A stretch of 64,000 nt of DNA from an uncultured Actinomycetes bacterium (GCA_963706025.1 CAVPLM010000003.1:352001-416000), one strand, 5' to 3'. Positions 1,024 to 56,570 are shown, counted from the stretch's first letter. Notes: generated from the sequence alone by a model not told the origin. Translations and numbers: made by a program.

Positions 1024-2500
1024 ATGCAGGACAAAGACCCTGAAGTCAAGCATGAAGAACGTGGTGTTGCTCGAAGGCAAGTCCGTCAGCCGGAGAGAGT
1101 TCCTGAAGATCGCCGGTGTCGCCGGAGCCGCGGTGGGCGTGGGCGCCGGCCTGGGCGGAGTGCTTGCCGCCTGCGGCGAGGAAGAGACGACCACCACGAC
1201 AGCCGGCGCGACGACCACGACGGCTGCTCCCACTACTACCACCACCGCCGCTCCCACGACCACCGTGAGCACCGGCCCGGAGGCGGGCCGCGACATCATG
1301 CTCGGCCTGGTCTCGCCCAGCACCGGCCCCCTGGCCTTAGTTCGCGAAAGCCGATGACTGGTGGGTCGATTTCGCCATGGCCGCGGTGCCCGACGGCATC
1401 ATCGGCGGCGACGGCAAGCAGCACAAATCGTGATCAAGCGCGCCGACAGCCAGTCCGACTCCAATGCGGGCGGCTCAGGTGGCGGGCGACCTGATCAACA
1501 ACGACAAGGTCGATCTCATGATGGCCTCCGGCTCCCCAGACACGGCCAACCCGGTCGCCGACCAGTGCGAGGCTTCGGGATGTCCGTCGATCGCGAACTT
1601 CGTGCCCTGGCAGCCGTTCTTCTTCGGTCGGCGGCGAAACCCCGGATCCCACCAAGGCCTTCAAGTGGACCTATGCCCAAGCTCTGGGCCTGGAAGGCAT
1701 CGTGTCCAACTTCATCGCCATGTGGGACCAGGTGGAGACCAACAAGAAGGTCGGCTTCCTCTTCGCCAACGACGCAGACGGGGCGGCCTGGACCGACATG
1801 ACCACCGGGCTTCCGCCGGCGGTGGAGGCGGCGGGATACAGTATTACCTGTCCGACCTGTATCCGGTCCCCAGCGAGGACTTCACCAAGTACATATCCGA
1901 TTTCAAGAAGGAAGGCTGCGAGATCTGCTGCGGCACGATCATCACGCCGGACTTCACCAACTTCTGGAAACAGGCTGTCCAGCAGGGCTACAACCCGAAG
2001 GTCCTGACCATCGGGAAGGCTCTGCTCTTCCCGCAGACCCTCGAAGCCATCGGCGACATCGCCTACAACGCCACGGTCGAAGGCGTGTGGCATCCCACCT
2101 GGCCGTTCAAGGACTCCATCACCGGCAAGACCTGCCAGGAACTGGCCGACGACTACATGGCCAAGACCGGCGAGCAATGGACCGCGCCGATCGGCCAGTA
2201 CGCCAAGTTCGAGTGGGCGGTGGACGTCTTCAAGCGGGTCACGAACCTCGACGACAAGGAAGACATCATCGCCCAGGTGAAGACGACCAAGTTGGAGACC
2301 TGCCTCGGGCCGATCGACTTCACCGCGCCCATCGAAATGATGACCAGGCACCCGGTGGAGAACGTCTACACAGCCGCCGACCGGTGGCGCGCAGTGGGTC
2401 AAGGGCGACGAAGTTCGCCTTCGAGCCGGTCATGGTCAGCAACGCTCTGGCCGACGGAACTGCCGGTGGCTGCCAAAGTCCAGCTGATGCAGTACTCGTA
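1024..2500 (+). CDS. Tat-exported ABC substrate-binding lipoprotein (LivK/Peripla_BP_6, aromatic-acid type), broken by many frameshifts
   Basis: Strong RBS AGGAGGAGGG before ATG 1024. Contains SRREFLK Tat motif, LAAC lipobox and Thr-rich linker; GLVSPSTGPLA, DSQSDSN-RAAQVAGDLINNDKVDL and DFTKYISDFKKEGCEI are spread over ORFs 1052-1357, 1361-1801, 1702-2007 and 1464-2501. Confidence 0.8.
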
Positions 2501-2574
2501 ATCGACCCGGCCCCTTCCCAGGAGGCTGAAGTCCCGGGCTGGGAGCGCGGACAAGTCGGTCCGACTCTTCGGAC

Positions 2575-2605
2575 AGGGGGAGCCCCGCGATGCGGGGCTC
2601 CCCCT
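2575..2605. terminator. Perfect 14-bp hairpin between convergent SBP and TetR genes
   Basis: AGGGGGAGCCCCGC-GAT-GCGGGGCTCCCCCT. Confidence 0.7.
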
Positions 2606-2661
2606 CCCTCTCGCGCTCGCCCAGGGCGTCCCTGACGGCCGAGCTTCATTCTGAACGAGTT

Positions 2662-3354
2662 CTAAGCGAGTGAGACGGCGATCATCATTTCGGCGGGCTC
2701 GGGCAGACCGAGCGGGGCGTCTCCTCGAAGGTACAGGTAGAGCGCTTTCTGAAGCTCGCTGAAGATCGTCTGGCTGCCGATGCCGTAGTACAGCTCGTGT
2801 TCTTGACCGAACACCATCCTTCCCCGCAGGACGGCGGCATACATCCCGTATGCCATGCTGATAGCCAAGACCGGGTCGGAATGGCCGATCTCATCGCGGT
2901 GTTTCAATAGGACCGAGATCAGCGCTTCGCGACGCTCCCGGTTCACACGCTCGCCCCGCTCTCTCAGGACAGGATCGAAGACGGAGTTCATCATGAAGGC
3001 GCGAGAGAGCTCGAGCTCTTCCGTGACCCGCCTGATGAGCGCACCGATGGTGCGCTCCACTGCTTCGGCCAGAGTCTCCGGCGAGCTGGGCTCTTCCAGC
3101 AGCTCGGCGTGTATCAGGGGCTCCAACCGGTTGTGGAACCGATCCTGCAGCAAGTGCAGAAGAGCGGTCTTGTCGGGGAACCGCGTGTAGAAGGCGCCGA
3201 CAGACAGACCCGCGCGGTTCAGAACACTTGCCACAGTCAGAGAGTCGATCCCCTCTGTGCGGATCTGCTCCTCGGCCGCATCCAAGAGCCGTTCGAGAGA
3301 CTCGCGGCTTCGCTTCTGGCGAGGGACTCGATAGGTGTGCTCAGCCTGCTCCAT
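2662..3354 (-). CDS. TetR/AcrR family transcriptional regulator
   Basis: PRQKRSRESLERLLDAAEEQI...LTVASVLNRAGLSVGAFYTRFPDK HTH. Start placed at Met 3354, which has TATACT 7 nt upstream. Confidence 0.9.
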   Translation of the reverse strand: MEQAEHTYRVPRQKRSRESLERLLDAAEEQIRTEGIDSLTVASVLNRAGLSVGAFYTRFPDKTALLHLLQDRFHNRLEPLIHAELLEEPSSPETLAEAVERTIGALIRRVTEELELSRAFMMNSVFDPVLRERGERVNRERREALISVLLKHRDEIGHSDPVLAISMAYGMYAAVLRGRMVFGQEHELYYGIGSQTIFSELQKALYLYLRGDAPLGLPEPAEMMIAVSLA

Positions 3355-3559
3355 GCCCACCAGTATATCGTGGGGTCGTTCCTCGCGAAGGTCGAGACTG
3401 ACCTGTTCAGGGGGCCACCTTGCGCAAAGCAAGTTCCACAGGAGGCAGGCCGTGCGCACCCTGCAAACGGCTGATATCCTTTGCACCTACAGGGACCAGT
3501 TTTCCAGGGCTTTCCACCGGACCGCCGCGAGCGCGGAGCCTGCAGAGCAAAGGAGTGAC

Positions 3560-5433
3560 ATGTACAAGGGCGGCTACACCGGCAACGTGCTGCGGGTCAA
3601 CCTGACCGACAAGACGTTCAAAGAGGAACCGCTACCGTTGGAGGTGGCGCAGGACTTCATCGGTGGCTCGGGCTTCACCGTCAAGTACCTCTATGACGAG
3701 GTCCCGCCGGACTGTGACCCCCTGGGCCCCGAGAACAAGCTTATCTACGCTCCCGGGCCGTTCACCGGTACCACCATCCCTTGCGCCAGCCGCATGGCCA
3801 TCAACGCCAAGTCGCCGGCCACGGGCGCAATGGGGGTGGCCACCACCGGCGGGCACTTCCCGGTGGAGATGAAGCGGGCCGGGTACGACGTCATCATCAT
3901 CGAAGGCAAGGCCGAGGAGCCCACCTATCTCTGGATCAAGAACGGCGAGGTCAAGTTCCGCCCGGCGAAGGAGCTCTGGGGTCTCACCAGCTCCGATTGT
4001 CAGCAGGTGATCAAGGACGAGCTTCACGACCAGAACATCCGCATCAGCTGCATCGGGCCGGCCGGGGAGAAGCTCTCCAAGATGGCCTGCATCGTGAACG
4101 AGCGCCGGGTGGCCGGCCGCAAGGGCCTCGGGGCAGTCATGGGCAGCAAGAACCTCAAGGCCATCGCCCTGCGGGGTGAGGGTCAGATGGCCATTGCGGA
4201 CAAGGAGAAGTACGACGCCGCCCGCAAGCGCATGATGGCCGGTATGCGCAAGAGCCCCATCCTTTATCCCGGAGTTCTCCCGCTACGGCACCTCCACCAC
4301 CCTGGATCTGACCCAGAGCCTGGGCATCTATCCGGCCAAGAACTGGACCGCCACCGGCGTCTTCAACCCGGCCGACAAGATCGGCGGGTTCGCCATCGAG
4401 ATCCCGCGGTACGGGCAAGATGGCCTGTGCCGGTTGCCCGGTCGGGTGCAGCCAGCTCCGCTTGGCGCAGGAGGGACCATATGCCGGTTGGTTCACGGAA
4501 GGACCGGAGTACGAGACCTTGTATTCCTTCGGCGGAGTCACCGGGGTGGACAATCCCGACGCCATCATCGCCTGCGACCGTATCTCGGACGAACTGGGGC
4601 TCGACACCATGTCGGCTGGGGTCACCATCGCCTTCGCCATGGAGCTGTTCGAGCGGGGCATCCTCACCCTTGAGGACACCGGGGGTATGGACCTCCACTT
4701 CGGCAACGACCAGTCGATGGTCAAGCTGCTGCACATGATGGGGGAGCGGCAGGGCTTAGGCGACGTCCTGGCCGACGGGGTCAAGGCAGCCGCAGCGAGG
4801 ATAGGCAAAGGCAGCGAGAAGTACGCCATGCACGTCAAGGGCCTGGAGCTGCCGGCGTACGATGTCCGAGGCGCGAAAGCGCACGGTCTCAACTACGCCA
4901 CCGCCTTCACCGGCGCCGACCACAACAAGGGCTACGCTTTCCAAGAGATCTTCGGTATCCCCATCCCCTATCCGGTGGATCGCTTCGCCATCGAGGGCAA
5001 GGGCAAGCTCTGCAAGTGGGACCAGGATGCCCGCACGGCCCTGGCCGACTCTCCCACGATGTGTGTCTTCCTCATGGACATGGCCGTAGCGGACTTCATG
5101 TTCGAGAATACGGCCGATCTCATGGAGGGGGCCACCGGGCTCATCTACACGCCCGAGGAAGTGCACGAGGTCGGCGACCGCATCAACACCTTGGCCCGCG
5201 TCTTCAACATATTCGCCGGGTTCACCAGAGCCGACGACGACCTCCCCGAGCGCCTGAAGACCGAGCCCATCCCCGACGGACCCTCCAAGGGGCAGATGAT
5301 CAGCCAGGCGGATCTCGATTTCATGCTGGACGAGTACTACGATGCCCGGGGCTGGACCCGCGAGGGCGTTCCCACCCGGGCCAAGCTTGAAGAGCTGCGC
5401 CTGGGCTACGCCGCGGACAGGCTGGGCCTGTGA
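3560..5433 (+). CDS. aor: Tungsten-dependent aldehyde:ferredoxin oxidoreductase (two apparent frameshifts, ~4271 and ~4410)
   Basis: RBS AAGGAG. Motifs GYTGNVLRVNLT, KSPATG, IGPAGEKL, GRKGLGAVMGSKNLKAI, CAGCPVGC, EGPEYETL, DELGLDTMS, HVKGLELPAYD and EYYDARGW (ORFs 3335-4738 and 4420-5433 plus a bridging frame). Confidence 0.9.
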
Positions 5434-5479
5434 CGGCGCCCGCAGCCCGTAGGCAAAGGTCTCCCGGAGTGCGCACACC

Positions 5480-5767
5480 ATGAAGATCACCGTTCGTAGC
5501 ATCGCCCTGATCAAGACGCTGCTCGGTCAGGGAGAGATGGAGCTCACCCTGGCCGATGGAGCCACCATCGACGTCCTGCTCGCGGAACTGACGGAGATCG
5601 GCGGCGAGAAGCTGGCTCCGTATGTGAGGGTGCCCAAGGAGGAGAGTGCTCACGCCCCGCTGAGGGTCATGGTCAACGGTCGCGATATCACCGCGCTCGC
5701 CGGCCGGAAGACCGTGCTCGAGGAGGGTGACGACGTCCTGATCTTCATCCCCATCGCCGGGGGTTAG
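5480..5767 (+). CDS. MoaD/ThiS family sulfur carrier protein
   Basis: 95 aa ubiquitin-like protein, VMVNGRDI...LEEGDDVLIFIPIAGG with C-terminal GG. Adjacent to aor. Confidence 0.9.
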   Translation: MKITVRSIALIKTLLGQGEMELTLADGATIDVLLAELTEIGGEKLAPYVRVPKEESAHAPLRVMVNGRDITALAGRKTVLEEGDDVLIFIPIAGG

Positions 5768-5843
5768 AGTCCGAGTCGGGCACACAGCTGTCTCGACAAG
5801 AACCCACGGCGCACTCGACGGCGTCCACAAGAAAGGCGGGATC

Positions 5844-6869
5844 GTGAAGACGGTCGACCTTGAGACTCATTTCGTGACCCAGGAGTGGATCGACGCGATA
5901 TACGCAAACCCGGAGTATCCGCGCTTCGTCGACGATCCGGCTTCCGGTAAGCGCCGTATGTACTATCGTGACGACGCCTTCGAGCCCCACGGCGACTTCC
6001 TCCTCGACCGGCTTCTGGATGTGGGTGAGGGACGGATCGAAGGGATGGGCGCCGCCGGCATAGACGTGGCCGTGGTCTCACTGACTGCACCCGGCACGGA
6101 CCATTTCGACCCCGCGACGGGAACCCGGCTTGCCGGCCGGATCAATGACGAGTTGGCGGCGGCTATCGACAGATACCCGGACCGGTTGATGGGTTTCGCG
6201 GCATTGGCTCCGAAGGACCCTTATGCCGCCGCGGCCGAGTTGGAGCGGGCGGTCAAAGAGCTGGGCTTCAGGGGCTGGAAGTGCCACTCGAACTTCGGCG
6301 ACTCCTACATCGACGAGAAGCGTTACTGGCCCATCCTGGCCAAGGCGGAGGAGTTGGGTGCGCCCATCTATCTGCACCCTGTGGCACCCATGATCCCGCA
6401 GCTACGCACCTATGGGCTGGCTCTGGCCGGGGCGGCCTTCGGATTCGGTATCGAGACGGCCACGGCCATGATGAGGCTGATATTGAGCGGGGCGTTCGAT
6501 GCCTTCCCCAAGCTCAAGATCATCCTGGGGCACTACGGCGAAGGCCTCCCCTTCCTGATGCAACGGATAGACCATCCCTTCGTCCGGCCGCATCTCAAGG
6601 CCTCCGACCCGGACGTGGTACCCGCTCTCGAGCGGCTACCCAGCGACTACCTGCGCGACAACATGGTCGTGACCACCAGTGGCAATTACCTTCCGGCGGC
6701 CTTCAAGTGCACCCGTGAGGCGCTCGGCATGGACAAGATCCTCCTGGGTACCGACTATCCCTACGAGGAGATGGACGACTGCATGCGCTACCTTGAGGGT
6801 CTGGGGATGCCGGAAGAAGAAAAGGCACAGCTCTACCACGAAAACGCGGCCGCTTTGGGATTCGCCTGA
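5844..6869 (+). CDS. Amidohydrolase_2 family, gamma-resorcylate/LigW-type non-oxidative aromatic acid decarboxylase
   Basis: DLETHF (ExH metal motif), IYLHP, ILGHYGEGLPF..QRID, TTSGN, GTDYPYE. Confidence 0.8.
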   Translation: MKTVDLETHFVTQEWIDAIYANPEYPRFVDDPASGKRRMYYRDDAFEPHGDFLLDRLLDVGEGRIEGMGAAGIDVAVVSLTAPGTDHFDPATGTRLAGRINDELAAAIDRYPDRLMGFAALAPKDPYAAAAELERAVKELGFRGWKCHSNFGDSYIDEKRYWPILAKAEELGAPIYLHPVAPMIPQLRTYGLALAGAAFGFGIETATAMMRLILSGAFDAFPKLKIILGHYGEGLPFLMQRIDHPFVRPHLKASDPDVVPALERLPSDYLRDNMVVTTSGNYLPAAFKCTREALGMDKILLGTDYPYEEMDDCMRYLEGLGMPEEEKAQLYHENAAALGFA

Positions 6870-6933
6870 TCCGCTTTGGTCGCCGAATCTGTTCGATCCA
6901 TTCCGTCCGTCTGGCAGAAAGGTCCTTGCGCTC

Positions 6934-8139
6934 ATGGAGCAACTCACGTACCACGACATCCTCTACAACGATGAGCCTATCGGGCCGTGGCCCACTCACC
7001 TGCTGACGCGGGTCGACAAACCCACCAACGAGATCGTGGGGCCGATCAAGCGGCGCGACGAGCGGGAAAGCCCCTTTGGGAAATCCCTCCTCGGCGGGTA
7101 CGGGGAGGAGATCCAGCGGGAGTTCATCCGTATGACCGTGCGCTATCCCCTCGGCGCGGCTCTGGTCGACATGCAGAACCTCATCAACACGGTCGTGCGG
7201 AAGCTCAACCCCGTTGCTCCGGAAAAGGCTCCCATACCCGACGATCCTGGAGTGCTGAGCCGCCACGTCAAGCTACTGGGCCATTTCCTGGGCGCCGACA
7301 TGGTAGGTATCGGCCCGCTCAGCCAATCGGCCGTCTATACCCATAACATGAAGGGGCGGGAGATCGAAGCTCCCTTCAAGTACGCCATCGTGCTCCTCTG
7401 CCGAAAGCACGATCCCACCATCTCCGCCTCCAACGGCTGGGAGGAGATAATCGACCCGGCCAGCTTCCAGACCTATCAGCGGCTGGCCATGCAGACCGAG
7501 ACCATGGCCAACTATTTGCGCAGGCTGGGCTGGGAGGCCGAGGCCTCCAACATGAACCGCTACCGCACTTTGATGCCCCAGGTTGTCCTGGACGCCGGTC
7601 TGGGTGAAGTGTCGCGGATGGGGATCATCCTCAACCCGTTCTTGGGATGCAACTTCAAATCCGCCTGTGTGCTCACCAACATGGAGCTGGAGACCGACGG
7701 CTACATCGACTTCGGGCTCCAGGAGTACTGCAGCAACTGCACGCTGTGCGCCGAGCAGTGCCCTCCTCGGGCCATCACTCGGGGACCCAAGACGCTCTAC
7801 AACGGCTACTACACCTGGAAGCTCAACAGCAAGGTCTGCTCCGATTTCGACGTGCTCAACAAGGAAGGCTGCGTGTGCGGCCGCTGCACCAAGGTATGCC
7901 CGTGGCATATCCCCGGCCAGGAGCCGCGCGATTTCGCCGATTGGGATGGAGACCTGATTTGGCTGCACAAGCGGGTGGACGAGCAGCGCGAGCGCATCAT
8001 CGCCAACAATTACGTCGATCCCGCCGAGCATACTCACAAGTGGTGGTTCCCGCTCGACGAGGTCGACGGCAGGCTGGTCGTCCCGACCGACAAGAACAAG
8101 CAGAAGATTTGCCGGGAGTATCCCCTACAGAACCGGTAG
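6934..8139 (+). CDS. rdhA: Cytoplasmic (Tat-less) reductive dehalogenase-like B12 / 2x[4Fe-4S] protein
   Basis: GPWPTHLLTRVDKPT N-terminus, HFLGADMVGIG, AGLGEVSRMGIILNPFLGCNFKS..LTNMELETD..IDFG, CSNCTLCAEQCP and C-x12-CGRCTKVCPW, KWWFPL. No signal peptide and no rdhB seen. Confidence 0.8.
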   Translation: MEQLTYHDILYNDEPIGPWPTHLLTRVDKPTNEIVGPIKRRDERESPFGKSLLGGYGEEIQREFIRMTVRYPLGAALVDMQNLINTVVRKLNPVAPEKAPIPDDPGVLSRHVKLLGHFLGADMVGIGPLSQSAVYTHNMKGREIEAPFKYAIVLLCRKHDPTISASNGWEEIIDPASFQTYQRLAMQTETMANYLRRLGWEAEASNMNRYRTLMPQVVLDAGLGEVSRMGIILNPFLGCNFKSACVLTNMELETDGYIDFGLQEYCSNCTLCAEQCPPRAITRGPKTLYNGYYTWKLNSKVCSDFDVLNKEGCVCGRCTKVCPWHIPGQEPRDFADWDGDLIWLHKRVDEQRERIIANNYVDPAEHTHKWWFPLDEVDGRLVVPTDKNKQKICREYPLQNR

Positions 8140-8369
8140 GTCCGGGCTCGTTTGCGCACGTCCCGGCGCGTCTTGCTCGCGCCGCAGCGCGCCGACCTTA
8201 AGCCCGCGATCGCACGCGGGTCGAGGGCTTTACTTTTCGAAGCGGCGGGCTAGAATTAATGCAGGGTCCGCCGCGGTGGCCCCTCCAGCGCCCCGGCGGT
8301 GCCCTGGCGCGTGCTCGCGGGGCTTAGCCGGGCCGGCTCACGTAGAGGCCGGCCGCAAAGGGGGTAATC

Positions 8370-9662
8370 ATGCGGCGGACGTGGCTCCTTCTAATCCTCA
8401 CTGTCTCATTGGCGATTGCATTCGTGTGCACGGGCGCCCTAGGGCCGGCGCCGCCGCGCGCGGCCGCCGCGGCGCCGACGTTCAGTGACGTTCCGGTGGA
8501 CCACCCCTACTACGAAGCCATCGAGGGGATGGCCGCGGCGAACGTTATCAACGGCTTTCCTGGCGGCACCTTCCGTCCCGACGACCTCGTTATCCGCCAG
8601 CAGTTCGCCAAGATGATCGTGCTGGCTCTGGGCCTGCCGGTGAGCGAGCAGGATGTGTGCACATTCCCCGACGTCTACAAGGGCGGACCCGACACGTTCT
8701 ATCCCGACAACTTCATCGCCGTCGCAGCCAAGAAAGAGATCACCACCGGCTACACCGACGGCCGCTTCGGCGCTGTTGACAACATCAAGCGATGCCAGAT
8801 ATCCACGATGATGGTCCGGGCAGCCAATAACCTGGACTTCCGCGATCTGGTCGAAGCCCCGGATTGGTTCCTGTCCGACTGGGGCATCAGCGACGTCCAT
8901 GGGCCGTTCGCCGACACCGCTCAGTACAGCGGGCTTTTCGAGGGATTGCTACCCGATTTCTATCGGGATCCCTACAAGCTGGCCACCCGGGGTGAGGTGG
9001 CCCAGTTGCTCTGGAGCCTCAAGACTTTTGTCAGGCAGACCAAGAGCGTGGACCACTTGGTGACGATCACCGAGCTGACGGACGGCCCAGTGGCGGCGGC
9101 GTTCAGAGCGGCGCTGGAGGATGCCTCCGGCGGCCAGGTCGAATGGATGAGAGCGCTGCGGACGGAGCACCCCGTGAACGCCTCCATCGTGGCCTCTGTC
9201 AATTATGGGTGTGCCAATGGTGATTTTTACCTTGGTGTGCCCGGGCCGGGAGGAACAGCCGTGGTCGGCCCACTGATGGCCGGCTTCCTGACCTATATGG
9301 AGAAGTTCGGAGCAGAGGTCGGCTACGGGGCTCTGTTCGATGTCAAGTTCGCCTCCGCTTTCAACTGGCGGCTGGGGGGAGACTATCTTCGCCAGGGGGA
9401 CGAGACTCTTGATGAGTACGCGGCTCGGATCCAACTGCTTATGGACAGCTTCGTGCAGCAGCACGCTGAAGACGAGATGTTCTTCCTATCCGATCCGGCC
9501 GTGCACGATCTCATCGAGTCCAGCGGCTCTCTGAGGATATCCGACCCGGGCCGGGCGCTACTTGGTGTGCGCTACGGGGTAGACCTGTACCGGGCGTCCG
9601 GAGACGCATATGCTGACGTGATAGACCAGGTCGCCGACGAGTTCTGGCCCTGGGAGGATTGA
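8370..9662 (+). CDS. Secreted SLH-domain protein with uncharacterised C-terminal domain
   Basis: Signal peptide, then SLH-like repeats FSDVPVDHPYYEAIEGMAAANVINGFPGGTFRPDDLVIRQQFAKMIV ... ATRGEVAQLL. Confidence 0.75.
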   Translation: MRRTWLLLILTVSLAIAFVCTGALGPAPPRAAAAAPTFSDVPVDHPYYEAIEGMAAANVINGFPGGTFRPDDLVIRQQFAKMIVLALGLPVSEQDVCTFPDVYKGGPDTFYPDNFIAVAAKKEITTGYTDGRFGAVDNIKRCQISTMMVRAANNLDFRDLVEAPDWFLSDWGISDVHGPFADTAQYSGLFEGLLPDFYRDPYKLATRGEVAQLLWSLKTFVRQTKSVDHLVTITELTDGPVAAAFRAALEDASGGQVEWMRALRTEHPVNASIVASVNYGCANGDFYLGVPGPGGTAVVGPLMAGFLTYMEKFGAEVGYGALFDVKFASAFNWRLGGDYLRQGDETLDEYAARIQLLMDSFVQQHAEDEMFFLSDPAVHDLIESSGSLRISDPGRALLGVRYGVDLYRASGDAYADVIDQVADEFWPWED

Positions 9663-9777
9663 GAGACTCCGGGCGCAAGTACGCCGCTCGGCGGTTGGGG
9701 GGCACTGCAACGGGGTATACGGGTGAGCAGTCCGGTCGTAGGTCGCCGGAAACCGAAGCATGCGCTTGGGAGGCGGG

Positions 9778-10194
9778 ATGAATTACGTGGCCATTTGGTT
9801 CGCGGCATTCGTGGTCATGAGTGTGCTCGACGTGATCTGGCATCTGGGCGTCTTCGGCTGGGCGTACGGCCCCGATTTCAAGGCCGTGGCTCGCATGGTC
9901 GATGGGAAAATGAAACTGCAGCCCATTCCAGGCATCATCTCACAGGTGCTCGTGGTGAGCGCGCTCATGGTCATCACAGTCATGGGAGTGCGGTCCGGCC
10001 AGGGATACCCGGTGAACTTTCTGATGGGCGCGATGGGCGGCGTTCTGGCCATCAGCGTGTACGGGCTGGTGAACCAGGCCTTGATTGACAAATGGACCTG
10101 GCGGCTCACCATCCTGGAAGTCATCTGGGGACCGATAATCGGGGGGCTGGGAGGTCTCTTCATCGCCTGGATGTACAGGGCGCTGGAACTCTAG
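9778..10194 (+). CDS. DUF2177-like membrane protein
   Basis: RBS GGAGG. Four TM segments, LDVIWHLGV, GVLAISVYGLVNQALIDKWTW.LTILEVIWG. Confidence 0.65.
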   Translation: MNYVAIWFAAFVVMSVLDVIWHLGVFGWAYGPDFKAVARMVDGKMKLQPIPGIISQVLVVSALMVITVMGVRSGQGYPVNFLMGAMGGVLAISVYGLVNQALIDKWTWRLTILEVIWGPIIGGLGGLFIAWMYRALEL

Positions 10195-10316
10195 CAGCCC
10201 CAGGATTACTCCGGGGCAGGCCGAATGGACTACAATACGTGGTCGTCGGCCGTCCCTTGACCTGGGAGAGTTCGATCGGTTTGTCCAGTTCGTCCCGTCT
10301 GCGCCGGTCTCCTGTT

Positions 10317-12365
10317 GTGCCCCGCCGTGGGGTCGCGATCACCCGGCTCCTCACCTTGGTGCTCCTTGTGGGGGCGTTCTTGGCGCTGGGATGGGGGCTG
10401 CAGCCGGTCGGGGCGACCGACACCGGGACGGTCGAGCCGGCTCAGTACGCCGCCGCCGGCCCCCTCGTCACGGATGCCCTTCCCGCGGAAGTCCCGCCGG
10501 GCGCGGGGCGTATCGCGCTGAAACTGGCGCCCGGCTATCGTCTTGAATCCGGGGCCGACGGGGCCCTGCTGGTGGTGCAAGACCGGGGGGTCATGGCTAC
10601 TGCGGCGATGGACGTCCTCGGGATGGCGCTGCAGCAGGTAGCCGAAGTCGAAGGTCTTGGCATCCAGGTGGTGGCGCCGACATCGTCTGATGCGCCGACG
10701 GCGGCCGATGATGCTGATCTGGAGGCGGCGGTCGGAGCGCTGCGGCTCCTGCCCGGAGTGCTCTGGGCGGAAGTCAGCCATCCGGTCTACGCGTGCCTGG
10801 TGCCCAATGATCCGCTATACGCGCCCAGCGTCTGGGAACCTCTCGGCCAATGGGGTCTTGTTCGTGTCGGCCTGCCCACAGCGTGGGACACGGTCACCGG
10901 TTCGGCCGACGTGGTGGTGGCGGTGGTCGACAGCGGGCTCAATCGCGACATAATGGATTTCGCCGGCCGCATCGTGTACCCCTACAGCATCCTTTCCGGA
11001 AGCTCGGTCTGGCCGGCCTGGCAGGATACCTACGGCCACGGCTCGGGAGTGGCGGCAGTGGCCGCTGCCCAGGGCAACGATCATCTGGGGATCGCCGGGG
11101 CGGCCTGGAACGTCAAGGTGATGCCCGTCAAGATCGCCAATTCCAACTCATCGGATGATGTGACTCTGGCAGCGGGTATCACGTATGCGGTCGACAAGGG
11201 CGCCGACGTCATCAACGTGAGCTTCGCCGGGACGGAGGGAAGTAGGACCCTGGAGAGCGCCGTCGACTACGCGCTGGCGCGCGGCGTCGTGATAGTGGCC
11301 GCTGCCGGCAACAACAGCGCTTGGTCCGTCGGCTATCCCGCTGCGATCCCGGGTGTCATCGCCGTGGGGGCCACCGACAGCGCCAACAACCGGTGCAGTT
11401 TCTCCAATCAAGGGAGCGCCCTCGACATCGCCGCGCCGGGGGCCAGCATACTGAGTTACACCACCGCTTCGGCCACGTCGTTCGCACGCTGGAGCGGTAC
11501 GTCGTTCTCCTCTCCCCTCGTGGCTGGTGTGGCGGCGCTCTTGAAGTCCGCGAACCCGACTCTTACACCTGCAGAGATCGCCGACATGATCAGCGACTCA
11601 GCCGATGACCTGGGTGTGAGCGGTTGGGACCAGGCGTTCGGCTGGGGATTGCTCGATGCCGACGAGGCGGTCGCGGAGGCGGTAGCCGGCGTCACCACCA
11701 CGACCACTACCACGGTCTCGACTACCACTACGACCACGGTCCCCTCCACGACCACCACGACGGCCCCACCGTCGACGACCACCACAACGACGACATCCAC
11801 GACCATCGTGGGCCGATTCGCCGACGTGTCCGCGGAGACCACGCCATACGCGGCTCAGATCGAGCAGTTGGCCGCTTCGGGGGTCGTCGAAGGCTACACG
11901 GTGGGCGATCACAAGGAATTCCGTCCTCTCGACCTTGTGAGGCGCCAGCAGTTCGCGAAGATGATCGTGCTCACTCTGGGTTATCCCGTGACGGAGAGTG
12001 ACACCTGTACGTTCACCGACGTGGTTCACAAACCCGGGGAGCTCTATCCCTATCACTACGTTGCGGTCGCCTACAAGAAGGGGATCACAGAGGGTACTAA
12101 GCCTCCGCGACTGTTCTCTCCCTACGGCGAGTTGACGCGGGCGCAGATGATCACCATGGTGGTGCGGGCCACCCAACTGCCCGATCCCCCGCCGGGCTAC
12201 ACCCCGCCCTTCCCCAACTTCTCGGCTGTGCATTACCCCTTCGCGCGGAAGGCGGCAAGTGCTGGGCTTCTGGACGTGCTGGAAGGGATGGGGCCCGGTT
12301 ACGACTTCCTCGCTCCGGCGACCCGGGGTGAGGTATGCGCCTTGCTCGCACCCTTGCTTCAGTAG
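10317..12365 (+). CDS. S8 subtilase with Thr-rich linker and C-terminal SLH domains (start approximate)
   Basis: Catalytic VAVVDSG, HGSGVA, AAAGN and SGTSFSSP motifs; poly-Thr linker; FADV...FRPLDLVRRQQFAKMIV...ATRGEVCALL. Confidence 0.9.
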   Translation: MPRRGVAITRLLTLVLLVGAFLALGWGLQPVGATDTGTVEPAQYAAAGPLVTDALPAEVPPGAGRIALKLAPGYRLESGADGALLVVQDRGVMATAAMDVLGMALQQVAEVEGLGIQVVAPTSSDAPTAADDADLEAAVGALRLLPGVLWAEVSHPVYACLVPNDPLYAPSVWEPLGQWGLVRVGLPTAWDTVTGSADVVVAVVDSGLNRDIMDFAGRIVYPYSILSGSSVWPAWQDTYGHGSGVAAVAAAQGNDHLGIAGAAWNVKVMPVKIANSNSSDDVTLAAGITYAVDKGADVINVSFAGTEGSRTLESAVDYALARGVVIVAAAGNNSAWSVGYPAAIPGVIAVGATDSANNRCSFSNQGSALDIAAPGASILSYTTASATSFARWSGTSFSSPLVAGVAALLKSANPTLTPAEIADMISDSADDLGVSGWDQAFGWGLLDADEAVAEAVAGVTTTTTTTVSTTTTTTVPSTTTTTAPPSTTTTTTTSTTIVGRFADVSAETTPYAAQIEQLAASGVVEGYTVGDHKEFRPLDLVRRQQFAKMIVLTLGYPVTESDTCTFTDVVHKPGELYPYHYVAVAYKKGITEGTKPPRLFSPYGELTRAQMITMVVRATQLPDPPPGYTPPFPNFSAVHYPFARKAASAGLLDVLEGMGPGYDFLAPATRGEVCALLAPLLQ

Positions 12366-12901
12366 CTGCCGTAGCGGTCCCGGAACTCCCGGTCGAGGAT
12401 GTCGAGCACCACATAGTCGGCGAAGCGCCCGTGCTGGAATGCCGCCTCGCGCTCTCTGCCCACCTCGACGAAGCCCACGCGTCTATAGAGACCGAGCCCG
12501 CGGCCATGATCTTGATGTGCCCTGAGACGCACGCTGTGCAGCCCCAACGTATCGAAGGCGAAGTGCAGGCAGGTCACAATGGCCTCTGCCCCGTAACCCT
12601 GACCCCAGTCTTCCTTCGATCCGATCACCAAGCCTAGCTCGGCTCGACGGTTCACCAGGTTCACGTCTTTGATGCCCACGTTGCCTATGTACCGACCATC
12701 CTCGATCAGGTGGATCTCGAAGGTGTAGCGGTCGGTTGAGGCGGCCTCGCGGTCGTAGTAGTACTCTTCGGCTTCCCGGGTGACGGGGATGTGACCGACG
12801 ACCAGATACTCGTGCACCTCGGGATCGTTCAACCAGCCGCGGATGGTCTCGGCGTTTCCCCGGTCCAGTTCGGTGAGGTAGATCCTCTCGCCTTTGATCA
12901 T
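12359..12901 (-). CDS. GNAT (RimJ/RimL-type) acetyltransferase
   Basis: MIKGERIYL...AELGLVIGSKEDWGQGYGAEAI...FAFDTLGLHSV...LYRRVGFVEVGREREA. Confidence 0.9.
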   Translation of the reverse strand: MIKGERIYLTELDRGNAETIRGWLNDPEVHEYLVVGHIPVTREAEEYYYDREAASTDRYTFEIHLIEDGRYIGNVGIKDVNLVNRRAELGLVIGSKEDWGQGYGAEAIVTCLHFAFDTLGLHSVRLRAHQDHGRGLGLYRRVGFVEVGREREAAFQHGRFADYVVLDILDREFRDRYGSY

Positions 12902-12957
12902 GTTACTGCGCGCGCTGGACGGAGCCACAATCGCCGGTATGGCCGATCAGCCGGAGT

Positions 12958-13584
12958 TCACTCGGCGGGACCGGGCTGGAAACTCGCCACCAGCGCAGCG
13001 AAGACGGGCGCGTTTGTCTCCCAGTTCTCGGTAGCAGCCTGCAGGGTGAGCTGGTATTCGATGTCGCCGCTGAACAAGAAGTAGAGCGTGGAGGTGACCG
13101 GCGCACCGCTCTTAAAGAAGCTGTAGGTAACCTTGAAGCCGGACATCCCCGCGACCTTGGCCTCGGACAAGGCTTCTATCGTCTCCATATCGGTCGCCTG
13201 GCTTTCGAGGCTGGCGAGCACCTGCTCCACTTCAGCCTGGATCTCAGGCATCATGGACTCGTCGACGGTGAGATTGAGCTCGTAGACCGACACCTGGGCC
13301 AGGTCGATGTACGTGTCATCGGCGACGGCCCCCTCGGGATCGAACACACCCACGCTTTTCGCAGCGCTACCACCTGCCGTGACGTCGGAGCTGTCGCCCT
13401 CCTGCAGTTGCCAGTCGGCCGGGTAGTCGAAGCTGAAGCCGTAGTCGGTATCGGTGTAGGTCTTGGTGCCACCGCTATTGGAATCGCCGCCGTTTCCACA
13501 GCCGGCAGCCACGAACGCCGCCACTAGGAGGACGCATCCCAGCAGGGCTGCAAACCCCATTGAACGGCGTGTGCGCATTCTCAT
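12958..13584 (-). CDS. PsbP-like lipoprotein
   Basis: AAGC lipobox; KTYTDTDYGFSFDYPADW; YQLTLQA...FAALVASFQ. Confidence 0.65.
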   Translation of the reverse strand: MRMRTRRSMGFAALLGCVLLVAAFVAAGCGNGGDSNSGGTKTYTDTDYGFSFDYPADWQLQEGDSSDVTAGGSAAKSVGVFDPEGAVADDTYIDLAQVSVYELNLTVDESMMPEIQAEVEQVLASLESQATDMETIEALSEAKVAGMSGFKVTYSFFKSGAPVTSTLYFLFSGDIEYQLTLQAATENWETNAPVFAALVASFQPGPAE

Positions 13585-13752
13585 CTTCGTCTCCTCGTGT
13601 GGATGGTGTGCCACCCATTGTGCCACGTGCGCGGGCAAGGAAGGGAGCCCGCGTCGCCGGCACGCAGGCATCGTCGCTCTTGAGCAGAAAATAACAGAGA
13701 GTCGGTAACGGGATCGCGTGGAGACTCGTCATTATGAGAAGGGTGGACTAAG

Positions 13753-14931
13753 GTGCGGTTCAGACGAGCCCTCTTCATCCTGGTCTGCGGTGGTCTCATC
13801 TCGGCGGCAGCCTTGCTGCAGGGAGGCTGCGTAGAGATCACCGGTTTCCAGATCAATGGAGCTGTCGCAGCCGGCTCGCATCACGTCATCACTCTGCAAG
13901 CCTCGGCGACGGTGCCCTCCGGTGGCCCCGTCAGGTGCGTGATAGCGATCCGCATACCTTCGCAGTGGGAGGTCGGTTCGGCGACGTTGAACGGGCCGAC
14001 AGTGACGGATACGTTCCAGGAGTCGAGCGTCATGGAAACCGTCTACGCCAACGAGTGGGAAGCGGCGCCGGTCGGCGTGGGCCACAACGGCCGCAAAGAA
14101 GGCTACAAGTGGTGGGTGGGATACAGCGGTGCGCACGACTGGGCGCTGGGTGAAACGGGCCAGGTAGCCATAACCATAGACACCCACGGGCGGGGCGGCA
14201 GTTACCTGCTCGATCTGGCGACCGGGGTCGCGGGAAGCGCCGACCCGGAGAATCTCGCGGACAAGAGCTTGTGGCAGGTGGGAAGCGCGGGGCTCAAGCC
14301 GTCCGGGGTGCTGCTCGATCAGGCGATCACCCTCTATTGCTTCACAGATGTGATCCCTGGAGTCAGGTATTTCGAAGCCATCCAGGGGATGGGGGCACAG
14401 GGACTTGTCGAGGGCTATCCCGTCGGTTCTGGAGGTTACCGGGAGTTCAGGCCCACGAACCCAGTCCTCCGGGCTCAGTACGCCAAGATGATGGTGGGCG
14501 CTCTAGGTCTGGGCGTCGACGAGGCCATGACTCCCCCCGTGGACTTCCGCGATCTGGGCCGCGACGTGAGCACCAATCTCTACCCGCACGAGTATGTGTG
14601 GACGGCGTATGGCAACAACATCATCAAGGGCTACACTGACGGCACCTTCAGACCCTACGTCGCGATCAGCCGGGGCCACGCCGTCACGATGACCGTGAGG
14701 GCGCTTCAGAAGCTGCACCCGAGCGTCCTCCAGACTGTGCCCGCTACGTTCGTCCAGACCTGGGGCAAGGACCTGTTGCCCGAGCACAGCGCCAATGCCC
14801 GCATAGCCGAATACAACCATCTCCTGGACGGCCTGCCCTTGACCACGACGTCCGCCGACGGCAAAGCAGCCATGTCCAGGGGTGAGGTGGCGCAGTTGCT
14901 CTGGAACATGATGGATCTCGTCGCGCGATAG
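13753..14931 (+). CDS. Putative lipoprotein with unknown N-terminal beta-rich domain and C-terminal SLH domains
   Basis: LQGGC lipobox-like; FTDV..YFEAIQGM..GLVEGY..EFRPTNPVLRAQYAKMMV; IIKGYTDGTFRPYVAISRGH; MSRGEVAQLLWN. Confidence 0.75.
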   Translation: MRFRRALFILVCGGLISAAALLQGGCVEITGFQINGAVAAGSHHVITLQASATVPSGGPVRCVIAIRIPSQWEVGSATLNGPTVTDTFQESSVMETVYANEWEAAPVGVGHNGRKEGYKWWVGYSGAHDWALGETGQVAITIDTHGRGGSYLLDLATGVAGSADPENLADKSLWQVGSAGLKPSGVLLDQAITLYCFTDVIPGVRYFEAIQGMGAQGLVEGYPVGSGGYREFRPTNPVLRAQYAKMMVGALGLGVDEAMTPPVDFRDLGRDVSTNLYPHEYVWTAYGNNIIKGYTDGTFRPYVAISRGHAVTMTVRALQKLHPSVLQTVPATFVQTWGKDLLPEHSANARIAEYNHLLDGLPLTTTSADGKAAMSRGEVAQLLWNMMDLVAR

Positions 14932-43307: not shown

Positions 43308-44264
43308 ATGAGAGTAGTCGAGAAGATGAGAGCCATGCGGTCGGACCGGCATCTGTGGCTCGCCCTATTGCTGGTGCTCGCAGTCGCCTTGGCTGTGGCT
43401 CCGCTTACCGCGGGGTGTGGTGAGGAAGAGGAGACTACGACCACAGCCGCGCAGTCGAGCACGACCGTCGCGCCTGAGACGACGACCACTGCAGCTGCCG
43501 AGACGACGACGACCGTCGCCAAATCAGACCTGGTACTAGCGTCGACCACGTCGACCCAGGACTCCGGTCTGTTCGATGTACTGATCCCTGCTTTCAGCGA
43601 AGCCTACCCGCAATACACCGTCAAAGTCGTCGCGGTGGGCAGCGGCGAGGCTCTTAAGCTTGGCGAGACAGGCGACGCCGACGTGCTTCTCGTCCACTCT
43701 CCGGCCGCCGAGGAAGAGTTCATGGCCAACGGCTACGGGGTGGAGCGCGAAGCGGTCATGTACAACGACTTCATTATCGTGGGTCCCGCGGAAGACCCCG
43801 CCAAGATCAAGGGCATGACCGACGCCTCCGATGCGTTCACGGCAATTGCCGCTGCCGAGGCTCTCTTCTTTAGCCGGGGTGACGATTCTGGCACGCACAA
43901 CAAGGAGAAAGCTGTCTGGAAAGAGGCCGGCATCACGCCCGAAGGGGATTGGTATCAGACCACCGGACAGGGCATGGGCGAGACCCTCACCATCACCGAC
44001 CAGAAGAGCGGCAACACCTTGGCCGATCGGGGCACCTACCTGTCGAAGAAGGACACGCTCTCGCTCGAGATCCTGGTGGAGGGAGACAAGGCGCTCTTCA
44101 ATCAGTACCACGTGATAACAGTGAAGGACGCGAAGAATCCGCAAGGCGGGACGGATTTCCTGAACTGGATCATCTCTCCGCCGGCGCAAGAGCTCATCGG
44201 CACCTTTGGAATCGAGGAGTTCGGCCAGCCGCTGTTCGTCCCCAACGCCGGCCAGGTCGAGTAG
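43308..44264 (+). CDS. tupA: Tungstate ABC transporter substrate-binding lipoprotein
   Basis: TAGC lipobox; LASTTSTQDSGL, GDADVLLVHSP, MYNDFIIVGP, SRGDDSGTHNKE, GQGMGETL, DRGT. Confidence 0.93.
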   Translation: MRVVEKMRAMRSDRHLWLALLLVLAVALAVAPLTAGCGEEEETTTTAAQSSTTVAPETTTTAAAETTTTVAKSDLVLASTTSTQDSGLFDVLIPAFSEAYPQYTVKVVAVGSGEALKLGETGDADVLLVHSPAAEEEFMANGYGVEREAVMYNDFIIVGPAEDPAKIKGMTDASDAFTAIAAAEALFFSRGDDSGTHNKEKAVWKEAGITPEGDWYQTTGQGMGETLTITDQKSGNTLADRGTYLSKKDTLSLEILVEGDKALFNQYHVITVKDAKNPQGGTDFLNWIISPPAQELIGTFGIEEFGQPLFVPNAGQVE

Positions 44265-44284
44265 GATAGACGGGAGGGTACAAT

Positions 44285-44318
44285 AGGGGGCGCCTCGCCA
44301 GACGGCGAGGCGCCCCCT
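44285..44318 (+). terminator. 15-bp hairpin between tupA and tupB (stoichiometry/stabilising stem)
   Basis: AGGGGGCGCCTCGCC-AGAC-GGCGAGGCGCCCCCT. Confidence 0.6.
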
Positions 44319-44340
44319 TCCTCACGAGGGCGATACTGAG

Positions 44341-45064
44341 TTGGGAATTTTCTGGGATTCGATAAAGCAAGCCGTCGTGCTCCTCTTCAGCGGTGACGCC
44401 TACGTCTACGAAGTCATGTGGATGTCGCTCCGGGTCGCGGGCAGCGCCACGCTCCTCGGCATGGTGGTAGGCATCCCGATAGGCTCTTGGCTGGCTGTCA
44501 AGCGTTTCTGGGGTTGGGGGACGGCGGCGACGGTTCTCAACGTGGGTCTCATGCTCCCACCCGTTGTGGTCGGGCTTTTTGTCTTTCTGCTTTTGTCCCG
44601 CCAAGGGCCGCTAGGTCCACTCGGCCTGCTCTATTCGCCGACGGCGATGATCATCGCCGAGTTCTTCATCGCCGCACCTGTCATAGCCGCCATCACCATG
44701 GGAGGAGTGGCCTCGGTCCCCAAGGACGTACGGCTGCAGGCCATGGGCTTAGGAGCGTCCCGCTGGCAGAGCACGTGGCTCGTGATACGCGAGGCCCGCG
44801 TCACTCTTCTGGCAGGGATCGTAGCCGGGTTCGGGGCGGCTATCAGCGAGGTGGGGGCCGTGATGATGGTCGGGGGGAATATCTCGATCGGCGGCAACAA
44901 CCTGACCGGCACGATGACCACAGCGACTATGGCCAAGGTGCGGCAGGGCGACTATGCCATGGCCATGGCCTTCGGCCTCATCCTGCTGTTGCTCGCGTTC
45001 GTGATCACCTTTTGCACTCACTCGTACGCAGCAGGGGATCCGGCGTCGGTGGCTGCAATCGTGA
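44341..45064 (+). CDS. tupB: Tungstate ABC transporter permease (probable extra T at ~45012; the corrected frame ends WLQS*)
   Basis: LPPVVVGLFVFLLLSRQGPLG, GFGAAISEVGAVMMVGGNI, TMTTA. Confidence 0.9.
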
Positions 45065-45070
45065 CCGAGC

Positions 45071-46231
45071 TTGCCGCTGGGGAGGCTGCGACCAGGGGAA
45101 GAGTCTGACAGGGTCGCCATCGAAGCTGGGGGCCTTGTCAAGACATACGGCGAGCGGACGGTCGTCTCGGTGGAGTCTCTGCGGGTCTTCGAAGGCGAGG
45201 TGCTCGCGATCCTGGGACCCAACGGCGCCGGCAAGACCACACTCTTCCGGCTCCTGGCTCTGTTGGAACGGCCTGATGCAGGATGGGTGGCCCACTTCGG
45301 CCGGCGAGTCGGGATCCACGACCTGGCGGCCCGCCGGCGAACCGCCGCGGTCTTCCAGCGGCCCCTGCTCTTTCAGGGCTCGGTGGATGAGAACGTGGGT
45401 TTTGGGCTCCGCTTTCGCCGGCTCCCGCGCAGGGACGTCAGGGCGAAGGTGCGCGCGACACTGGAGCTCATGGGCATATCCGGTCTGGCCGACGCCGACA
45501 TGCGCACTCTCTCCGGAGGGGAGATGCAGCGGGTTGCTCTGGCCCGGGCCCTGGTGCTCGAACCGGAAATACTCTTTCTGGACGAGCCGACCAGCAATCT
45601 CGATGTGCACGTCCGCCGCCGCTTCCGGGAGGATCTCAGACGAGTGGTCGATAGTCTGGCTGCCACGGTGGTCATCATCACGCACGAGCACAACGAGGCT
45701 TTGGCACTGGCTCGGCGGGTGGCCGTGATCCAGGACGGGTCAGTGGTGCAGATCGGCACGCCGGAGGACGTCTTCACCCACCCCCAGAACGCCTTTGTGG
45801 CAGATTTCACCGGCGCCGAGACCATCTGGCACGGTGAAGCGGTAGAGTGCCGTGAAGGGTTGTGCATCGTGAGAACCCTGGCAGGCATCCCAGTGGAAAC
45901 GGTCGCGGAGGTGGACGTCGGGAGGTCGGTGGTCCTGGCGATCCGACCGGAGGATGTCGCGCTGGAGCTCATGGGCGTCGCTGCGGCGCCGGCGACGACG
46001 AGCGTGCGCAACCGGTGGTGCGGAGAAGTCGACAGTGTCACCCCAGCCGGTCCTCTGGTGAGAGTGGTAGTGAGGCTCGATTGCGAGCCCGGGGTAACGC
46101 CTGTCTTCGGCGGCGAAGGTGAGGTAATCTCTCTCATCACGCGGGCGTCGGCCGACGAGCTCCAGATCGGAGCGGGACGACGGGTGACCGCCAGCGTCAA
46201 AGCCACGGCGCTGCATGTGCTCGCCGGCTGA
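45071..46231 (+). CDS. tupC: Tungstate ABC transporter ATP-binding protein with TOBE domains
   Basis: GPNGAGKTT, LSGGEMQR, FLDEPT, TSVRN, SLITRASADELQI.G..VTASVKATALH. Confidence 0.9.
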   Translation: MPLGRLRPGEESDRVAIEAGGLVKTYGERTVVSVESLRVFEGEVLAILGPNGAGKTTLFRLLALLERPDAGWVAHFGRRVGIHDLAARRRTAAVFQRPLLFQGSVDENVGFGLRFRRLPRRDVRAKVRATLELMGISGLADADMRTLSGGEMQRVALARALVLEPEILFLDEPTSNLDVHVRRRFREDLRRVVDSLAATVVIITHEHNEALALARRVAVIQDGSVVQIGTPEDVFTHPQNAFVADFTGAETIWHGEAVECREGLCIVRTLAGIPVETVAEVDVGRSVVLAIRPEDVALELMGVAAAPATTSVRNRWCGEVDSVTPAGPLVRVVVRLDCEPGVTPVFGGEGEVISLITRASADELQIGAGRRVTASVKATALHVLAG

Positions 46232-46264
46232 GCAAAGAGCAAAGAAGGACGGCTTTCGGCACGA

Positions 46265-47509: not shown

Positions 47510-47543
47510 CGCTCAGGGGTCTCTTAGCGAAGGGTGCCGTCAA

Positions 47544-48524: not shown

Positions 48525-48525
48525 G

Positions 48526-54716: not shown

Positions 54717-54725
54717 GGTGCCGGC

Positions 54726-56470: not shown

Positions 56471-56570
56471 CTGCGCGGGCGGGCCGACGCGGGGGAGCGA
56501 AAGGCGGAGTTGAGAAAGGGGCCGGAGGCACCCGGCCGGAGGCCCCGCGACGTTGTGCTAGACTCCGGGT

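Follow-up and report, generated by a model that had tools for sequence, protein, structure and literature searches.

A candidate operon joining an aldehyde oxidoreductase, a LigW-type decarboxylase, and an RdhA-like reductase in an uncultured actinobacterium

Within a window of 64,000 nucleotides from an uncultured Actinomycetes bacterium of sediment (G000:C3:352001-416000; the window is the whole stretch analyzed, and positions are counted from its first letter), we studied a group of genes at 2662..8139 composed of a TetR-family regulator and four genes encoding a tungsten-type aldehyde oxidoreductase (AOR), a MoaD/ThiS-like protein, an amidohydrolase, and a reductase resembling RdhA, the reductive dehalogenase. 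The metagenome-assembled genome (MAG) comprises 3.66 Mb in 30 contigs and is 92% complete and 7% contaminated. Gene identities were taken from an open reading frame (ORF) listing together with Pfam, NCBIfam, and PDB sequence matches, and gene calls based on third-position GC (GC3) were used for the flanks of related loci. On these matches, all five identities proposed in a first-pass annotation of the window hold. The regulator gene (2662..3354, minus strand) encodes 230 residues from MEQAEH (PF00440, 4.9e-11; TetR_C_15, 6.1e-6), its start being set by alignment with the related loci L013, L015, and L026. On the plus strand lie the genes of the AOR (3560..5433, 623 residues in relatives; AFOR_N, 4.6e-80; AFOR_C, 1.4e-115), the MoaD/ThiS-like protein (5480..5767, 95 residues with a C-terminal GG; PF02597, 1.3e-9), the LigW/gamma-resorcylate-type Amidohydro_2 protein (5844..6869, 341 residues; PF04909, 3.8e-43), and the RdhA-like protein, a predicted B12 reductase with two [4Fe-4S] clusters (6934..8139, 401 residues). 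Next to the regulator, a further plus-strand gene encodes a Peripla_BP_6 solute-binding protein (SBP; 1025..2501, start approximate; PF13458, E 4.3e-21 on the ORF 1464-2501).

The four genes from AOR to RdhA are co-oriented, separated by 46, 76, and 64 nt, and associated with Shine-Dalgarno-like sequences, and the interval 2400-8500 contains no terminator-like site where 3.1 were expected from shuffles. At the level of gene arrangement we consider an operon-like grouping of these genes, divergent from the TetR gene, to be confirmed. The module is taken to end at 8139 because SLH-domain and subtilase genes and then housekeeping genes lie downstream; the first of them encodes an SLH-domain protein 230 nt beyond the RdhA-like gene, and the remainder of the window is composed of housekeeping genes. 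The interval 8370-14931, straight after the operon, encodes three SLH-domain proteins, one a subtilase, and the same SLH/subtilase gene families occur downstream of the operon in L013 and L026. The 205-nt spacer between the TetR and AOR genes (3355..3559) contains the conserved boxes CTGATATCCTTTG and TTTTCCAGGGCTT in an alignment of the window with L013, L015, and L026 (alignment A2), and an inverted-repeat search of it returned a single weak 13-nt palindrome at 3376-3395. We regard this spacer as a candidate promoter/operator.

The PDB matches of the RdhA-like protein are NpRdhA (4ras, E 2e-66, query residues 16-384 against chain residues 258-627), PceA (3e-23), and QueG (1.9e-4). It scores 127.5 bits against TIGR02486, below the cut-off of 160.35 and covering model positions 77-279 of 314, and 27.4 bits against the QueG model TIGR00276. 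The cysteine ligands of its two [4Fe-4S] motifs are found at 266/269/272/276 and 302/315/318/322; C266, C269, C272, C276, C302, C318, and C322 are invariant in our family alignment (A1), and C315 is at least 90% conserved. No twin-arginine motif is present in the N-terminus (MEQLTYHDILYND...), and no rdhB lies beside the gene, whose downstream neighbor is the SLH-domain protein, so the protein has neither the twin-arginine translocation (Tat) signal nor the adjacent rdhB that mark respiratory RdhA proteins. Longer relatives are of two kinds, an NpRdhA type of ~700-750 residues and a reductase-fused type of ~1065 residues with Fer2 domains, both only 30-38% identical to the window protein. In a tree of 86 rows built by a quick method, from which L041-L044 and L054 of the 80 loci described below were excluded because their matches were short, split, or interrupted by stops, the short forms are set apart from the long forms (100*). 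Profile scores, PDB matches, and the tree all place the protein with NpRdhA-type enzymes and not with QueG. The first-pass annotation was therefore right about this affiliation, and also about the absence of Tat and RdhB, which the N-terminus and the neighboring genes support.

The family is large, with 677 relatives at E<=1e-10, and a gene of this short cytosolic kind is carried by 33 of the 61 genomes of the window's order. The window protein shares 62% identity with a homologue from Bathyarchaeia and 65% with one from Burkholderiales. A "simplified cytosolic type" of RdhA-like protein, ~395 residues long and found in Desulfobacterota and Chloroflexota, has been named in a cold-seep survey (PMC12219181); the window protein clusters with such proteins, which are without the vestigial domain, and is by sequence a member of this already-named type. 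In its accessible portion, the main text of that survey gives neither a biochemical function nor an AOR/decarboxylase neighborhood for the type, and the word "Actinomycetota" appears there 0 times. The catabolic NpRdhA of Nitratireductor pacificus (4RAS, 6ZXU) and the self-sufficient BhbA/JtRdhA forms are likewise cytoplasmic and without Tat signal or RdhB, and homology to NpRdhA extends over the whole catalytic core. Unlike them, the window protein has no vestigial N-terminal cobalamin-like domain and no reductase domain (401 residues versus ~700 or ~1065), and it occurs in an apparent anaerobe beside a tungsten AOR rather than with NAD(P)H reductases.

In NpRdhA, according to the accessible text of PMC7565698, S422, K488, and R552 are ligands of the substrate hydroxyl, Y426 together with K488 acts as the proton-donor dyad, A419 borders the pocket that receives the second bromine, and the K488Q and R552L variants are severely compromised. 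We mapped these residues through a HMMER alignment at ~35% identity, in gap-free stretches anchored by conserved cysteines and tyrosine. S422, Y426, and K488 are kept as S177, Y181, and K242, whereas A419 is replaced by D174 and R552 by D306. All 86 aligned rows have Tyr at the position of Y181 and Lys at that of K242, and a single row lacks the Ser. The long forms have a small residue at the A419 position and Arg at the R552 position (8/8), and the deep Dehalococcoidia short forms mostly have Gly and Arg (16/17 for the latter). A subfamily of 51 rows, formed by the window's clade, other Actinomycetota, Desulfobacterota with Burkholderiales, Bacillota, and the AOR-linked Chloroflexota, instead has Asp at the first position (50/51) and Asp or Asn at the second (47/51), with Arg in 0/51. 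The mapping thus indicates that catalytic residues are kept while substrate-recognition residues have turned acidic or polar. The Arg552 and small residue at 419 that accompany an NpRdhA-type ortho-halophenol site are both absent, and such a substrate, as implied by the first-pass annotation, becomes an assumption only. Since the pocket differs in this way, the substrate is not expected to be 3,5-dihalo-4-hydroxybenzoate and probably carries extra hydrogen-bond-donating groups. Dehalogenation by the window protein is plausible and not assured.

The amidohydrolase best matches the 5-carboxyvanillate decarboxylase LigW in the PDB (4icm, E 2.3e-59), followed by gamma-resorcylate decarboxylases (3s4t, 1.7e-51, and another at 1.1e-48) and the salicylate decarboxylase 6jqw (4.2e-33); it also matches 2,3-dihydroxybenzoate decarboxylase. 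It has the motifs DLETHF (5), YLHP (176), LGHYGE (228), and GTDYPY (302), which we take to be metal ligands. These matches assign it to the LigW/gamma-resorcylate group of non-oxidative decarboxylases, with whose members 4ICM, 3S4T, and 2DVT it shares the Amidohydro_2 fold family (E 2.3e-59 to 1.1e-48). In contrast to LigW systems, it is one of several paralogues (6 LigW-like proteins in this genome are 53-63% identical to it), and genes of the aerobic Lig pathway are otherwise absent from its surroundings in the window. A further Amidohydro_2 gene (60827-61561, 244 residues, E 2e-31) lies at the window's end beside genes for a Bmp-type SBP and an ABC ATPase.

The C-terminal part of the AOR matches the AOR structures 9g7j (3.3e-63) and 1aor (6.5e-59), and the intact orthologue of L015 does so over its full length (1.8e-130 and 4.5e-126), ahead of FOR (4e-101) and BamB (9e-62); by these scores the enzyme, a single-subunit form, is closest to AOR sensu stricto and not to FOR, GAPOR, or BamB. 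In this it resembles the homodimeric Pyrococcus-type AOR (1AOR). The fragments in the window do not reach the cut-off of NF007354, and the gene is read in three frames, with an N-terminal domain to ~4270, a middle piece, and a C-terminal part from ~4401-4420, a break of frame that the first-pass annotation had missed. Two 1-base insertions, at ~4267-4271 and ~4400-4401, are both absent from all seven relatives compared (L013, L015-L019, and L051), whose frame is uninterrupted and ends after 623 residues in six; in L016 it stays open past the stretch examined. The MoaD-like protein matches TIGR01687 below the model cut-off (2.9e-10) and ends in ...PIAGG. The aor genes of Aromatoleum aromaticum are accompanied by MoaD-like aorD/aorE, presumed in the accessible text of PMC6365974 to be tungsten-cofactor maturation factors. 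By this precedent we assign the MoaD-like protein to the AOR, probably as its maturation factor, and not to a step of the degradative route. The window resembles aorABCDE in having a MoaD-like gene after the AOR gene, and differs in having no AorA/AorC electron-transfer subunits; its AOR differs from both the Pyrococcus and the Aromatoleum systems in that genes for a decarboxylase and an RdhA-like protein belong to the same operon.

The SBP gene is likewise split over several frames in this assembly, the intact 487-residue orthologue of L015 matching 1079-1459 and 1347-2495 in two frames (tblastn). This orthologue has no PDB relative at E<=1e-5, so the label "aromatic-acid type" given in the first-pass annotation is a putative one; across the whole genome, 22 tblastn matches to the SBP are found.

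The gene order is not unique to this genome. A scan of 185,579 species genomes with the family alignment returned 80 loci, in which we then looked for matches to the window's proteins. Ten loci, all from MAGs labeled Actinomycetota, Gaiellales, or Thermoleophilia and with an RdhA at least 75% identical, contain AOR, amidohydrolase, and RdhA co-oriented (L013, L015-L019, L026, L041, L042, and L051); TetR and SBP are present too, and a MoaD-like gene was detected in nine of the ten. A TetR match is found in 12/14 loci at the same RdhA identity, and the distance from amidohydrolase to RdhA is only 2-4 nt in L016-L018. Outside this group, L047, from another actinobacterial clade, encodes TetR and RdhA, a URO-D-type methyltransferase, a corrinoid protein, and RACo, and then an inverted amidohydrolase-MoaD-AOR series. 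The RACo, corrinoid protein, and methyltransferase fragments at L047:11939-16330 resemble an O-demethylase system. A RACo-type activase also lies beside the RdhA-like gene in L035:1-1421, which like L047 is a Thermoleophilia locus, and a RACo gene is found ~5 kb from an Anaerovoracaceae homologue (L048).

The link between AOR and RdhA recurs in a separate, starred Chloroflexota clade of 13 rows, whose cluster is composed of an AOR, a 74-residue protein, ABC ATPases and permeases, an SBP belonging to the same BLAST cluster, and RdhA, the AOR being visible in the seven rows with contigs long enough. BLASTP detects no similarity between the 74-residue protein and the MoaD of the window (E 0.38); given a weak beta-grasp Pfam match (Ub-Mut7C, 0.0019), we consider it only tentatively MoaD-like. 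Downstream are genes for a BD-FAE esterase, a PIG-L protein, an RraA-like aldolase, an extradiol-dioxygenase-type protein, and CHMI. Overall, an AOR is found within the flank of 20/80 loci and of 17/45 loci with at least 8 kb on both sides. Ten of the genomes have 2-15 AOR matches in 2.8-6.3 Mb, from which we roughly estimate a chance adjacency of 1-6%; the 17/45 includes kin and is not a count of independent cases, the AOR link being carried by at least three or four separate branches. Judged by gene neighborhoods, AOR is a recurrent but dispensable neighbor of RdhA-like genes.

The wider genome contains 17 AOR-family loci, two of them frameshift-split, nine matches to corrinoid proteins (B12-binding_2), and one RACo, and this content suggests a bacterium specialized in converting methoxylated or aldehydic aromatics anaerobically. 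A second RdhA-like paralogue (G000:C14:7884-17007, L012; 13816-14973, minus strand) is 40% identical to the first and keeps the NpRdhA-type Arg, with Asn at the A419 position. It is preceded by genes for an aminotransferase, an AOR, a DUF362 protein, and a MalT/LuxR-type regulator, with an FAD oxidoreductase next; a DUF362 gene is also near the Bathyarchaeia homologue (L043). The paralogue lies ~4 kb from this AOR, and both RdhA-like genes of the genome are within ~5 kb of one. Elsewhere, the AOR gene C3:579633-580829 is directly followed by a corrinoid-protein gene (C3:580927-581139). In the window, 43308-50140 encodes a molybdate/tungstate-type ABC transporter (PBP_like_2, permease, and TOBE ATPase) followed by MobA-MobB, MoaA, MoaC, a MOSC protein, and a MogA/MoaB-like protein, a predicted pterin-cofactor supply cluster ~35 kb from the AOR operon. 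Genes for UbiD, UbiA, a UbiE-type methyltransferase, and radical-SAM, VitK2_biosynth, and CofH/MqnC-like proteins lie in 53208-59788, where they probably form a menaquinone cluster of the futalosine route.

With moderate confidence, we interpret the module as a TetR-controlled catabolic operon for substituted phenolic aldehydes or acids in a probably anaerobic Thermoleophilia/Gaiellales-like actinobacterium, the two AOR frameshifts being most likely assembly errors. We posit that a phenolic aldehyde or acid, possibly taken up through the SBP system, would relieve TetR repression; the AOR would convert the aldehyde group to a carboxylate while reducing a ferredoxin encoded elsewhere; the LigW-type decarboxylase would strip a carboxyl group ortho to a phenolic hydroxyl; and the RdhA-like enzyme would spend two low-potential electrons to remove a substituent next to the phenolic hydroxyl, a halide by precedent. 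The two redox enzymes would be coupled at the pathway level through the ferredoxin pool rather than in an obligate complex. A complex prediction for the L015 AOR orthologue (1-623) with RdhA (12-386), run without controls, returned scores of 0.00 and 0.00 and is counted neither for nor against an interaction. Ferredoxin can feed NpRdhA in vitro in the SpFdx/EcFldR system (PMC7565698, accessible text), which makes the ferredoxin route chemically reasonable, and pathway-level redox coupling of the two enzymes via ferredoxin is plausible.

Several observations weigh against this interpretation. The operon contains no ferredoxin gene. In L020, L022, and L027, which are nested in the window's clade, TetR, SBP, and the amidohydrolase-RdhA pair are present and a second SBP replaces AOR-MoaD, and in L014, with an RdhA 88% identical, none of the partners is found. 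No AOR lies in the flank of 60/80 loci, and the neighbors of other family members include FMN reductases (L037 and L046), short-chain dehydrogenases/reductases, permeases, HpaB, Rieske, and DUF362 proteins. Between the actinobacterial and the Chloroflexota clusters, AOR identity is only 32%, so that these AORs are not orthologues. Dehalogenase activity is not to be assumed, because R552L cripples NpRdhA and no member of the 51-row subfamily has the Arg. Furthermore, all 11 listed within-gene single-base indels relative to other sequencing runs fall in 1339-4401, the one remaining listed indel being at 8218, a clustering that is odd for random read error. Given that AOR-MoaD is missing from the three nested loci and flavin reductases occur near other members, we suggest that AOR is a facultative, pathway-level source of electrons and not a fixed partner. 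The first-pass annotation had AOR supplying the electrons for RdhA, and as an obligate donor it does not survive its absence from these loci and from most loci of the family.

The altered pocket raises the question of whether the RdhA-like enzyme is a dehalogenase at all, or instead a class-III B12 reductase of non-halogenated, lignin-derived phenolics, with AOR-reduced ferredoxin or another local donor as its electron source; it might, for instance, reductively remove an oxygen substituent located ortho to the phenol. Such an enzyme would fit the Asp and Asp/Asn that the subfamily has at the positions where NpRdhA/BhbA-type long forms and deep Dehalococcoidia forms keep a small residue and Arg. 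It would also fit neighbors suggestive of lignin monomers rather than halo-aromatics (the LigW-type decarboxylase, the O-demethylase set of L047, and the esterase, extradiol dioxygenase, CHMI, and aldolase of the Chloroflexota), the abundance of corrinoid proteins and LigW-like paralogues in the genome, and the unusually high conservation toward Bathyarchaeia and Burkholderiales. We nevertheless consider this unlikely: the Tyr-Lys dyad is invariant and the Ser used in dehalogenation nearly so, natural halogenated phenolics share the lignin/humic pool so that the neighbors are compatible with halide removal, and the residue mapping comes from an alignment at low identity and not from a structure. 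We know of no such non-halide reaction for the RdhA enzyme class. It is quite improbable, in our estimation, that the whole Asp/Asp(Asn) short cytosolic subfamily is a new class-III cobalamin reductase for natural, possibly non-halogenated lignin-derived phenolics, powered in several anaerobic lineages by the oxidation of aldehydes through a dedicated tungsten AOR, a redox-neutral "aldehyde-driven reductive defunctionalisation" without an NAD(P)H reductase partner. The adjacency of AOR could also have no mechanistic meaning, AOR-MoaD being one of many general aldehyde-detoxifying units of an AOR-rich lineage that came to lie beside an amidohydrolase-RdhA pair and was inherited in one narrow clade. 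The genome contains 17 AOR loci (relatives have 3-14 matches), the full cluster is confined to loci with RdhA identity of at least 75%, where kin share synteny by descent, and AOR-MoaD was lost from the three nested loci while the amidohydrolase-RdhA pair stayed. We find this rather improbable in view of the AOR link in separate branches (L047, the Chloroflexota clade, L053, and the C14 paralogue of this genome), of genome G005, in which one of only two AOR matches in 3.3 Mb lies within the RdhA cluster, and of a frequency of adjacency far above the rough expectation.

The broken frames could, in turn, be genuine, with the SBP and AOR as pseudogenes of a decaying module in this strain. We compared positions 1300-8300 with contigs of four independent public runs (X1-X4) from three studies. 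The SBP gene has eight single-base indels at 1339-2456 relative to these contigs, and in 1343-2437 the window alone departs from all four runs by at least 30 substitutions. Decay would also fit the confinement of the listed indels to the SBP-AOR interval and the intact genes beyond it: no frame break interrupts the amidohydrolase and RdhA genes (5844-8136), whose tblastn matches are single and unbroken, and the genes at 8.3-22 kb also give unbroken matches, so that 4.4-22 kb appears clean on that basis, and the longest contigs over 5525-8271 (X2 and X3) show two gaps, one of them at 8218 after the RdhA stop. The letter at 4400 is, however, missing from the contigs of all four runs and that at 4267 from X2-X4, the X1 contig over 3968-4333 having one gap, not listed at 4267. 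The AOR gene is ~99.5% identical to the X1 contigs (2 differences in 365 letters and 3 in 698) despite two insertions 130 nt apart, which favors consensus error over decay. Comparable split matches occur in long-read MAGs among the relatives (L026, L041, L042, and L054), and amino-acid identity to orthologues is 91-95% within each frame. We therefore judge decay very unlikely and the two AOR frameshifts to be probably assembly or consensus errors. The 109 bases at 2562-2672, which separate the SBP gene from the 3' end of the TetR gene, are replaced by 50 other letters in the X2 and X3 contigs, and this spacer is strain-variable.

At title and abstract level, we found neither a published link of AOR with RdhA-like genes or a description of this operon, nor work on this locus among the reductive dehalogenase and Thermoleophilia literature. 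The type of the RdhA-like protein itself had already been named in PMC12219181. We regard as new the conserved AOR/decarboxylase/RdhA-like operon of Thermoleophilia-like bacteria, the independent association with AOR in Chloroflexota, and the Asp/Asp(Asn) pocket signature. Anoxic sediments commonly contain genes for short cytosolic RdhA-like proteins, and we encountered no publication that gives these proteins an experimentally tested function or a known electron donor. The locus supplies a testable proposal in the form of an operon, a candidate donor (AOR-reduced ferredoxin), and candidate substrates (ortho-substituted phenolic aldehydes or acids), and D174 and D306 are diagnostic pocket residues by which NpRdhA-like members of the family can be told apart from a second group. 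Should the latter turn out not to dehalogenate, metagenomic counts of "rdhA" would overstate the potential for organohalide reduction.

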